A DNA stretch of 64,000 nt from an uncultured Veillonella sp. (lineage in GTDB: Bacteria; Bacillota; Negativicutes; Veillonellales; Veillonellaceae): assembly GCF_937981445.1 (NCBI RefSeq), contig NZ_CALJON010000008.1, positions 124,442 through 188,441 on the forward strand. The letters run 5' to 3'. This document shows, one piece after another, positions 31,735-34,290 of this stretch (its first letter is position 1; each line of letters begins with the position of its first letter). Under the pieces are notes generated by a model. The model had not been told where the DNA came from. It worked only from the letters and a program-made list of their open reading frames with translations, and searched no databases. Both the position numbers and the translations under genes were made by a program.

Positions 31735-32250
31735 CTAAGCATATATAGACATATGTGGTTTACCATCCTTAAGGGGCATTGGCTTCTTTCCCTCTTTTTT
31801 CTTACCCTCTGTCTGAGGTGCCTTTGGTGCTTCTACCTTGTGATTATTTTCATTACCTACCGGTTTTTCTATTCTCTTACGCTCCTCATAGTCCTTTGCA
31901 AGGGCTATACGACGCTTCTCTTTAACTTCACTGCTTACAGTTGGCTTTTTGTGATTCTTTTCAAAAGTATCATGCTTTTTATCCTGGTTTCGATCTTGTT
32001 TCCTATCTTCTGCATTGTACTTCTTATCTTCTGCATTGTACTTCTTATCTTGTGTATTGTGCTTCTTCTCTTGTGTATTAGTCTTCTTATCTTGTGTCTT
32101 ATCTAAATTCTGTAACCCATCCCACTGCATATAAATAGGACGATTGGCACCTTCATACGGCTCTACTGATGCTGCACTCACAATGAAACCAAATGAGTTA
32201 GCCCATAACGTAACTGCCGCCACTGGAACAATAAACACAAACTTCTTCAT
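31735..32250 (-). CDS. Secreted lysine-rich repeat protein, function unknown
   Basis: The ORF track starts at 32274; the ATG at 32250 has GGGAGGG upstream. Signal peptide MKKFVFIVPVAAVTLWANSFGFIVSAA. Repeats KKxNTQ(D/E)KK / DKKYNAEDKK. Confidence 0.7.
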   Translation of the reverse strand: MKKFVFIVPVAAVTLWANSFGFIVSAASVEPYEGANRPIYMQWDGLQNLDKTQDKKTNTQEKKHNTQDKKYNAEDKKYNAEDRKQDRNQDKKHDTFEKNHKKPTVSSEVKEKRRIALAKDYEERKRIEKPVGNENNHKVEAPKAPQTEGKKKEGKKPMPLKDGKPHMSIYA

Positions 32251-32553
32251 AATATAACCCTCCCTAATTTGCATTATTATGCTATTTTAAACCATTAGTT
32301 GCATTTTTATAACAAAGTTATTCCATCCTTTGTATCATAGATATACAGGTACATGCAACAATCTATATTAACCGATAGCCTGTTAATCTACCGGAGCATG
32401 CTTATACTATACGCATATTTTATGAGATAGCTGTGAATAGTCCGTGAGTATAAAATGAGTTTTTTCTAAAATTTTCTTCATTTTATTTTTGGGATATAAT
32501 AGCATTTTTATGCGCATTGTATTCATCTTATAATCATGAAATTATTTTTTTGA

Positions 32554-32587
32554 AAATACAAATACAAATACAAATACAAATACAAAT
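32554..32587. repeat. Hexanucleotide microsatellite (AAATAC)x5.5
   Basis: AAATACAAATACAAATACAAATACAAATACAAAT read directly. Confidence 0.9.
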
Positions 32588-32694
32588 CCGAATTTAAATC
32601 TAACCCCAAACCTAATCCTTATCTTTACCCTCAGCTTAAAGCAACGGAAACTCTAAAAACTACTGTATCCAAATCTATACAGCTAATTACAAAT

Positions 32695-32966
32695 AAAAAA
32701 GATGCCTTACGGCGGCGGATCACTAATAATAAGATAATGTATCTATCATTAGCAATAGCGCCACCTTGGCATCTTGCATATAAAACGAAAAGTGCCCCAG
32801 CCCTTAGGGAGGAGGCTGAGGCAAGGTGTTCGTACATGTTTGTACTCACGATTAGGTATAGGTATTTAGAGGTTTAACAAGTAGACTCGCATGATAGTAA
32901 CTCCGGGATAAAGAGTTAAAACCAAGTGTAATCACTAGGGAAAGTGATTACTGTTCTCTTGTTATG
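32695..32966 (-). ncRNA. Candidate non-coding RNA of about 270 nt, unknown class
   Basis: Bounded by a consensus promoter (32972-33000) and a terminator: GATGCCAAGGTGGCG ... CGCCGCCGTAAGGCATC followed by TTTTTT at 32695-32773. A perfect 9-bp hairpin GTAATCACT-TTCCCT-AGTGATTAC sits near the 5' end. There is no ORF with a credible RBS apart from an 8-codon one. Confidence 0.45.
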
Positions 32967-32971
32967 TACAC

Positions 32972-33000
32972 ATTATAACATGTAAATCTAATAAATTCAA
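32972..33000 (-). promoter_or_regulatory. Near-consensus sigma70 promoter of the candidate ncRNA
   Basis: Minus strand TTGAAT-17 nt-TATAAT. Confidence 0.65.
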
Positions 33001-33423
33001 TATGTAATTTCTATTTTTTTCGATTTATTTTTTGGACACATAAAAATTAACATAAATGCCCGCCACACAACGGTTTTTAGATAAACTCACACCATATTTT
33101 CCATACTTTAAAATAAAATCTTACTAAAATTTTACTACATTTACAAAAAATTTACGTGACATGTGCAACATGTAGTCAAAAATAATACTTTATATTTTAC
33201 TGCACCATATGAATGACACACGTCAACATGTCCATCTACACAGTACATTTAACATTTTTGCAGTACATTTAGCATCTTTACAGAATATTCAACGGCCCAA
33301 TTACGTAGTACTTAAATACACTCTCTTTTAATATCATCTTACTTGTGTCATTTTATAATTAAATAGCTACATTCTTATAAATGCTACTCTTTAATCATTT
33401 ACTTTCTTAAGTAATTTTGGTTC

Positions 33424-34041
33424 TTAAGTCCGATCTTTATAAGATATATGTGCTTTAACCTGTTCGTCTATAATAGGCCAGGCCGTTTCGTACATATACC
33501 GATACCCCAATGTATTAGGATGTACATCACCAGCAAAGATAATCTCTTTTCGTGCATCCGCTGCTAGTAAGGCGTCATAAAAATTAATCACTACCAAGCC
33601 TTGCGCCTTTGCATAAGCTAAAATTAGTTCCCCATAGGCCTTTACTACGGCATTATCCCCATCAGGGTCAAAATCAATATGAGGTGGCAGACCCAGAATA
33701 GGTATTGCCCCAAGGGATTGAATATATGCCACATTTTTCTTCAACATGTGAAAACAATCTTCAGCCCTGCGACCTTGCAAAATATCATTGGTACCGCCCA
33801 TGATGATAATAAAATCATAGGGAGTTTTTGTCATCCCACACTGGCACTCTAAATTATTATATATGGCCTGTAAAGTAGCACCATCCACACCGGCATTGCG
33901 AAGAATCCACGGACTAGCGCCCTTAAAAGAAGTCTCCTTCTCAACAGCTCGTAAGGCCTTAATACTCAGCTCAACCCAGCCTTCACCATAGGGCACATCA
34001 TAACCTCGAGTGAGACTGTCTCCTATAAACAAAATATTCAT
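33424..34041 (-). CDS. SGNH/GDSL-family hydrolase
   Basis: 205 aa. Block I ILFIGDSLT, block III GGTND, block V GDVHPN. Confidence 0.85.
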   Translation of the reverse strand: MNILFIGDSLTRGYDVPYGEGWVELSIKALRAVEKETSFKGASPWILRNAGVDGATLQAIYNNLECQCGMTKTPYDFIIIMGGTNDILQGRRAEDCFHMLKKNVAYIQSLGAIPILGLPPHIDFDPDGDNAVVKAYGELILAYAKAQGLVVINFYDALLAADARKEIIFAGDVHPNTLGYRYMYETAWPIIDEQVKAHISYKDRT

Positions 34042-34061
34042 TGTCCTACCCCAGCATTAAA

Positions 34062-34290
34062 CATCTATCGTTAATTTCACGTATCTATTTCTTTACTTCG
34101 CATCCCCATCTTTATTTCACATTTTCTTACTTCACATATCCATCTTTATTTCACATATCTTCTTTATTTCGCATATTTTTTATTTTATGCAGCTATCGTT
34201 AATCTCACACAGCTTAAGCGTATGTTAATAAGTAACCTATGTTAATGTTAATGTTAATGTTAATGTGAATGTGAATAAATAGCCTATGTT
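34062..34290. repeat. Composite intergenic repeat region including (ATGTTA)n
   Basis: TATCGTTAAT(T/C)TCAC occurs at 34066 and 34194, flanking TTTATTTCAC/TTACTTCAC-type degenerate repeats. ATGTTAATGTTAATGTTAATGTTAATGTGAATGTGAAT at 34239-34276. Confidence 0.75.

Follow-up and report, generated by a model that had tools for sequence, protein, structure and literature searches.

RsaE/RoxS and other UCCC-motif sRNAs of the Bacillales act independently of Hfq (RF01820; PMC4409812, PMC6158497). In RNase III-dependent sRNA-mRNA pairs of Gram-positive bacteria, long and near-perfect duplexes are cleaved (PMC9217828), and RNAs derived from 3′UTRs can form pairs with sRNAs as sponges, as exemplified by the RoxS sponge (PMC8216469). 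The locus described here lies in a 64,000-nt stretch of DNA from an uncultured Veillonella sp., referred to as the window. Veillonella and its relatives are common gut and oral commensals and, to our knowledge, the regulatory RNAs of the Negativicutes are almost unstudied. Like the RsaE/RoxS genes, the locus stands alone, is framed by a promoter and an intrinsic terminator of its own and lies in an Hfq-independent setting. Unlike these RNAs, however, it is not matched by the RF01820 model, either at the gathering threshold or at E ≤ 10. We propose that it probably represents an independently transcribed, structured sRNA of ~185 nt that acts by base pairing in trans without Hfq.

A preliminary description of the same DNA had reported a promoter-to-terminator unit of about 270 nt at this site, and every motif that it listed is present on the minus strand where it had been placed. 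The unit is indeed an independent one, but conservation stops at a C-rich hairpin, giving a length of ~185 nt instead of 270 nt. Its boundaries are set by the following features.

33006..33027, minus strand: conserved A/T-rich box TAAATCGAAAAAAATAgAAatt, immediately 5′ of the -35 hexamer
32972..33000, minus strand: sigma-70-type promoter, TTGAAT, 17-nt spacer, TGnTATAAT (extended -10)
33000-32995, minus strand: -35 hexamer TTGAAT (sequence inspection)
32980-32972, minus strand: extended -10 element TGnTATAAT (sequence inspection)
32782..32966, minus strand: conserved ncRNA of ~185 nt, predicted to start at about A32965 and extending through the first U-run
32782..32822, minus strand: conserved intrinsic terminator, 9-bp G+C stem, loop UCCUCCCUAAG, then U4CGU4
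32822-32814 with 32802-32794, minus strand: arms of this terminator stem (C-rich hairpin 32822-32794)
32791-32782, minus strand: terminator U-run U4CGU4
32695..32773, minus strand: second, strain-specific terminator, GAUGCC..GGUGGCG...CGCCGCC..GGCAUC + U6, folding as a long interrupted hairpin
32773-32701, minus strand: two-part stem GATGCC.../...GGCATC of the second terminator, followed by T6 at 32700-32695

The promoter, previously called near-consensus, agrees with the consensus at 10 of 12 positions in addition to carrying the extended -10, and consensus scoring ranks TTGAAT-17-TGnTATAAT as the best promoter-like site within 32000-33600. In the alignment, the -35 hexamer, a spacer motif TTAGAT and the -10 hexamer are kept in all homologues. 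The A/T-rich box TAAATCGAAAAAAATAgAAatt is nearly invariant among 11 same-genus sequences, its core ATCGAA also occurs in the sister genus, and the element may be an UP element or the site of a regulator. Because promoter and terminator are both conserved, we infer that the gene is transcribed; what is said below of the direction of regulation and of all physiological roles is likewise conditional.

In a BLAST search of 32690-33000 against 40 relatives, conservation was limited to query positions 1-222, and in every relative the cross-species homology breaks off just past the U-run of the C-rich hairpin, which gives the conserved unit a length of ~185 nt. In agreement, the covariance model (R1) matches 32966..32785 with 186.5 bits and E = 1.9e-44. 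The C/G-rich segment that had been regarded as an internal part of the RNA is present, but is itself the conserved intrinsic terminator, including its conserved loop UCCUCCCUAAG. Conversely, the 13-bp stem with T6 that had been taken for the terminator exists as a strain-specific second terminator and not as the conserved end: it occurs in one copy, in this genome only, with no match in any relative examined, and the nearest relatives carry other, different second terminators at the same position. The 270-nt unit of the preliminary description is the ~185-nt RNA plus a strain-specific back-up terminator. Just 3′ of the second terminator, at 32555-32600 (minus strand), a hexamer microsatellite of (TTTGTA) × ~5-6 follows GGATTAGGTTTGGGGTTAGATTT, within which GATTAGGT forms an 8-nt complement of the invariant strand of the sRNA.

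Near the sRNA gene, an SGNH hydrolase and a small secreted protein are encoded, together with queC. The window holds ~300 nt of extra sequence (33060-33330, minus strand) from the stop codon of the SGNH-hydrolase gene to the sRNA promoter, where the spacer of most relatives measures only ~100-150 nt; this sequence contains the inverted repeats GACATGTTGACGTGTGTC ... GACTACATGTTGCACATGTCACG, and part of it is shared only with the nearest metagenome relative (L101). Directly 5′ of the SGNH-hydrolase start codon, at 34060-34190 (minus strand), lies a purine-rich tandem array of GAAATAAAGATGGATATGTGAA-like units, in which inspection by eye revealed no complementarity to the sRNA strand. The secreted protein, encoded at 31735-32250 (minus strand), is a small, repetitive Lys/Gln/Asp-rich polypeptide with a conserved signal peptide (MKRK.VLMVPVAAVTLWANSFG).

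Outside this strain, the unit recurs in 10 of the 11 genomes of its own genus, which is the Veillonella ratti / magna / seminalis / intestinalis group, and furthermore in one sister genus and in contigs from gut metagenomes. In the BLAST search of the 40 relatives, a 38-nt core was matched in a single sister-genus genome. The covariance model located the RNA in every sampled genome of the V. ratti/magna/seminalis/intestinalis genus and in 28 genome or gut-metagenome contigs; it detected none in ~145 other genomes of the order, among them 36 of the large Veillonella-type genus g5. One assembly, G001, lacks a match to the RNA as well as to the entire 4.1-kb neighbourhood including queC. Because this whole region is missing from the assembly, we treat the absence as an assembly gap rather than a loss, and as uninformative. 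In the sister-genus homologue (L012:1427-1610, minus strand) the helices differ, while the single strand and three UCCC-containing loops are kept.

In line with the earlier suggestion of a novel ncRNA, the RNA matches no Rfam family: an Rfam scan of the whole window at gathering thresholds returned nothing at the locus, and at E ≤ 10 over 32200-33450 only noise appeared (mir-2804, ppoRNA, PVT1, psRNA6). Literature searches yielded neither a described Veillonella sRNA of comparable kind nor an sRNA acting on bioA. 6S RNA (RF00013) was rejected, as its model does not match the locus and the fold is multi-domain. A guide RNA (tracrRNA/crRNA, omega-RNA or TldR) was dismissed likewise, there being no effector neighbour and no repeat array, and the complementary stretch being internal. 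A BirA operator inside the RNA was also discarded, since no second half-site lies at the correct distance from the half-site-like TTGTTAAACC.

The 276-nt strand folds with -90.6 kcal/mol, compared with -54.1 ± 4.4 kcal/mol for 200 dinucleotide shuffles (z = -8.2), and none of the 200 folds as stably; it is therefore more folded than expected by chance. The structure was derived as the RNAalifold consensus on a MAFFT alignment, and 11 sequences were used to build the covariance model. It comprises, upstream of the terminator, the following elements.

32876..32963, minus strand: 5′ domain, P1 enclosing the hairpins P2 and P3 (RNAalifold, pair counts)
32963-32956 with 32884-32876, minus strand: P1 closing helix, AACAAGAG with CUACUUGUU, compensatory changes at 3/9 pairs
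32951-32928, minus strand: P2 hairpin, perfect 9-bp GTAATCACT/AGTGATTAC, compensatory changes at 3/5 pairs
32917-32899, minus strand: P3 hairpin, invariant loop UUUAUCCCGG, compensatory changes at 8/13 pairs including its extension
32850..32873, minus strand: invariant unpaired 24-nt segment ACCUCUAAAUACCUAUACCUAAUC, proposed seed
32832..32845, minus strand: small hairpin GUACA-loop-UGUAC, followed by invariant GAACA

The perfect 9-bp hairpin reported near the start of the RNA is P2. Compensatory changes, with substitutions on both sides, occur at 24 of 44 predicted pairs; 93.3% of the paired cells hold a pair, compared with 37-41% when the partners are slid by 1-3 columns, and 0 of 500 column shuffles attained any of the observed covariation measures. 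The signal is strongest in the terminator, where compensatory changes affect each of the 10 stem pairs and pairing is kept in 100% of the cells. The stem of the GUACA hairpin is invariant within the genus and thus gives no covariation signal either way. The segment ACCUCUAAAUACCUAUACCUAAUC is unpaired in both the minimum free energy and the consensus fold. Of the 11 aligned sequences, only that of G004 deviates from it, by one substitution; the segment forms the invariant 24-nt core of a pyrimidine-rich single strand of ~30 nt in total. Unpaired C-rich motifs are furthermore displayed in two conserved loops, AUCCCGG in P3 and CCUCCCUAAG in the terminator.

In three genomes of the V. ratti lineage (G004, G008 and G011), as well as in many contigs from gut metagenomes, the bioA ATG is preceded at a distance of 14 nt by the exact reverse complement of ACCUCUAAAUACCUAUACCUAAUC; the sRNA is antisense to the mRNA in every case, an orientation compatible with pairing. 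The gene is a class-III aminotransferase that follows a dethiobiotin-synthase gene, which identifies the pair as bioD-bioA. In this lineage the perfect match between sRNA and bioA comprises 24-26 bp and ends one base before the AAAGGAG ribosome-binding site. A metagenome scan with an 18-mer returned, besides unrelated marine matches, only further copies of the sRNA and the V. ratti-type bioA leader. In 9/9 genus members having bioA, a duplex is predicted at -48..-2, counted from the start codon, with energies of -18.6 to -42 kcal/mol; these species are not independent events, as the site is inherited within one clade. For each of the nine, at most 1.3% of 3000 random windows of 120 nt drawn from this genome do as well. 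In the sister species 1-10 nt separate the end of the site from the bioA ribosome-binding site, and in most of them the duplex is interrupted. When both strands of the 4.3-kb locus were scanned, the bioA leader ranked first in 6 of 9 genomes and within the top few sites in the others; further high-scoring windows lay at the bioD leader. Cofolding the sRNA of G011 with its own bioA leader gains ~37 kcal/mol and leaves the sRNA helices intact.

A search of the genus for the 20-nt core, in which as many as 3 mismatches were allowed, brought up the short 3′UTR of rnc, which encodes RNase III, as the second recurrent place. An insert of 20-25 nt between stop codon and terminator is complementary to the segment in 10/11 genus members (-17.5 to -31.7 kcal/mol), species that again share one inherited site and do not count as independent events. 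In G001 the insert matches 23/24 positions. In 18 genomes of two sister genera without the RNA, the rnc stop codon abuts the terminator and the energies are only -8.7 to -16.1 kcal/mol. The site in this genome is

C44:62033-62049: complementary site in the rnc 3′UTR, -18.8 kcal/mol

and the insert ends in GAGG, bases that overlap with the 5′ arm of the terminator stem (C44:62020-62070; L067-L077). The bioA and rnc sites belong to unrelated loci in different lineages; each is similar to the complement of the sRNA strand and thus to the other, a likeness expected under selection for pairing. For the homologue of the sister genus, neither bioA nor rnc offers a significant site: the bioA leader of G012 reaches -15.8 kcal/mol, which 20% of shuffles equal. 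In that genus, bioA has its own promoter (L143, G012 C3), flanked by the inverted repeats TTGTAAAC ... GTTAACAA / TTGACAA, which look like BirA operators; in the genus of the window, bioA instead lies inside an operon, after bioD.

This genome and its relative G009 lack bioA and bioD. In this genome, the lack of the two genes together with the presence of BioY suggests a biotin auxotroph that relies on uptake. In G009 the rnc site is gone along with the bioA site, and yet the RNA with its invariant strand is kept. The retention of this strand in both genomes therefore indicates at least one important partner besides bioA and rnc. This genome was scanned with ungapped scoring. Its seed-complementary sites show no enrichment, either as a whole or near start codons, with 417 in total and 61 near starts, compared with means of 618 and 85 for 25 shuffled seeds. 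The strongest site of this genome (-29 kcal/mol, codons 5-12 of an M48 peptidase gene) was set aside for lack of conservation; the bioY leader, at -14.3 kcal/mol not significant, was likewise discarded. A weak candidate is the spacer between tonB and a TonB-dependent-receptor gene (-26.1 kcal/mol; -24.5 in G009 and -25.4 in G003), which is not conserved more widely. Since bioA and bioD are absent here, the relevant targets in this genome would be the weaker rnc 3′UTR site and candidates of the tonB-receptor kind. Within the tonB-receptor spacer the stretch complementary to the sRNA strand reads UGGGUGUAGGUUAG; the spacer is part of an iron-type uptake cluster (G000 C31:17500-30500; L174) encoding a FecCD permease, an ABC ATPase, a binding protein, ExbB, ExbD, TonB and three TonB-dependent receptors.

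We thus favour an uncatalogued, clade-restricted sRNA of the trans-acting base-pairing class, with targets predicted from complementarity. The locus combines a promoter and a terminator of its own with an unpaired seed, cross-species complementarity to mRNAs and the lack of a conserved ORF. The RNA is composed of three parts, a three-helix 5′ domain, the pyrimidine-rich single strand of ~30 nt and the terminator hairpin. The terminator loop CCUCCC resembles an anti-Shine-Dalgarno sequence, a second UCCC-containing loop is present in the 5′ domain, and the single strand would pair with purine-rich, UAGGUA-type stretches of mRNAs. Its best-supported partner is predicted to be the bioD-bioA intergenic region of the sister species, where pairing at the bioA leader would block translation initiation and the 24-26 bp duplex would additionally create a substrate for RNase III; the second recurrent partner site would be that between the rnc stop codon and terminator. 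No Hfq domain was found in this genome, which is 99.8% complete, a result that fits a reliance on long or C-rich pairing. A more far-reaching version, which we regard as rather unlikely, is that of an Hfq-independent riboregulator whose long duplexes are RNase III substrates and which also pairs to the rnc 3′UTR at the start of the terminator stem. If true, RNase III would be subject to an sRNA-wired feedback loop and a step of biotin synthesis (bioA) to RNA control. Biotin operons are otherwise known to us as controlled by protein repressors.

There is a similarly small chance that the RNA acts mainly by binding a protein, as a decoy, a scaffold or a component of an RNP, with the invariant single strand and the loops as contact surfaces and the bioA and rnc complementarities as secondary or incidental. 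Such a role would account for the invariance of the 24-nt segment, the P3 loop and the GUACA hairpin even in G009, where both targets are missing, for the lack of genome-wide enrichment of complementary sites, and for a 5′ domain more elaborate than a simple seed-plus-terminator sRNA requires. A perfect 24-26-bp antisense match beside a ribosome-binding site is nevertheless hard to explain without RNA-RNA pairing, and so is a 23/24 match in the 3′UTR of another gene in a different lineage. Moreover, none of the neighbouring genes provides a candidate partner protein, and a canonical 6S RNA is already encoded elsewhere in the genome (C15:77991-78164).

Improbable, and more so than protein binding, is a cis-acting leader, that is, a riboswitch or a protein- or RNA-dependent attenuator of the downstream gene for the secreted Lys/Gln-rich protein (32250..31735). 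In 10 of the 13 loci examined this gene does lie 3′ of the RNA and in the same orientation, the RNA ends in a terminator as attenuators do, and in six species the ribosome-binding region of the gene has AGGUAUAG, an 8-nt complement of the invariant segment. The RNA is intact, however, in the three loci that lack the gene (G002, G007 and G012), and the spacer of 240-500 nt between the two is poorly conserved; it includes TGTATAAT elements resembling promoters, and three lineages have a second terminator in it as well. Free covariation in the arms of the terminator, beside a single strand that does not change, leaves no conserved anti-terminator pairing; no Rfam riboswitch or leader is matched, and the duplexes with the leader of the secreted-protein gene are weak (-10 to -17 kcal/mol). 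We consider it very improbable that the product is a small protein or the locus of the toxin-antitoxin type. ORFs of 72 aa and 8 codons exist on the minus strand, and two of 46 and 31 aa on the plus strand also overlap the region; none is conserved and they run into strain-specific sequence, in line with the earlier statement that no credible ORF is present. The 8-codon ORF has no conserved start codon, and its frame varies between species as well. The 72-aa frame crosses helices whose substitutions are compensatory rather than synonymous, the indels in P2 are not multiples of three, and the invariant segment shows no third-position variation.

A base-pairing sRNA is thus the reading that we retain. 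The well-delimited gene, strong covariation, obvious seed and second recurrent site in the RNase III 3′UTR make a case for experiments, and the perfect 24-26-bp bioA match offers a target that can be tested in type strains amenable to culture, V. ratti ATCC 17746 for example. If confirmed, it would be a first sRNA-target pair for the clade and would place post-transcriptional control inside a biotin operon. The general concept of RNA regulation is unchanged by this RNA, which would be a regulator of a familiar kind.

Its resemblance to RsaE/RoxS includes unpaired UCCC/CCUCC loop motifs, among them that in the terminator loop, able to pair with G-rich ribosome-binding regions, and metabolic genes as targets, which for the present RNA are predicted ones. 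In contrast to the ~100 nt of RsaE/RoxS, it comprises ~185 nt with a three-helix 5′ domain. Its dominant conserved element is a 24-30-nt A/U/C strand directed against a UAGGUA-type sequence rather than a C-run of the RsaE/RoxS type, and, unlike RsaE/RoxS, it is confined to one genus-level clade of the Negativicutes. With the RNase III-dependent pairs it shares the predicted bioA duplexes of the V. ratti lineage, which at 24-26 bp are long enough for a double-strand-specific RNase and require no Hfq; their length suggests the involvement of RNase III. Feedback through a site in the 3′UTR of the RNase III mRNA itself is speculative, and we know of no such site among RNase III-dependent examples. 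As in 3′UTR-derived sponges, the seed-complementary stretch of the rnc 3′UTR is fused directly to the terminator hairpin, a layout able to titrate the sRNA, from which we can only infer that the rnc 3′ end might serve as a sponge RNA.
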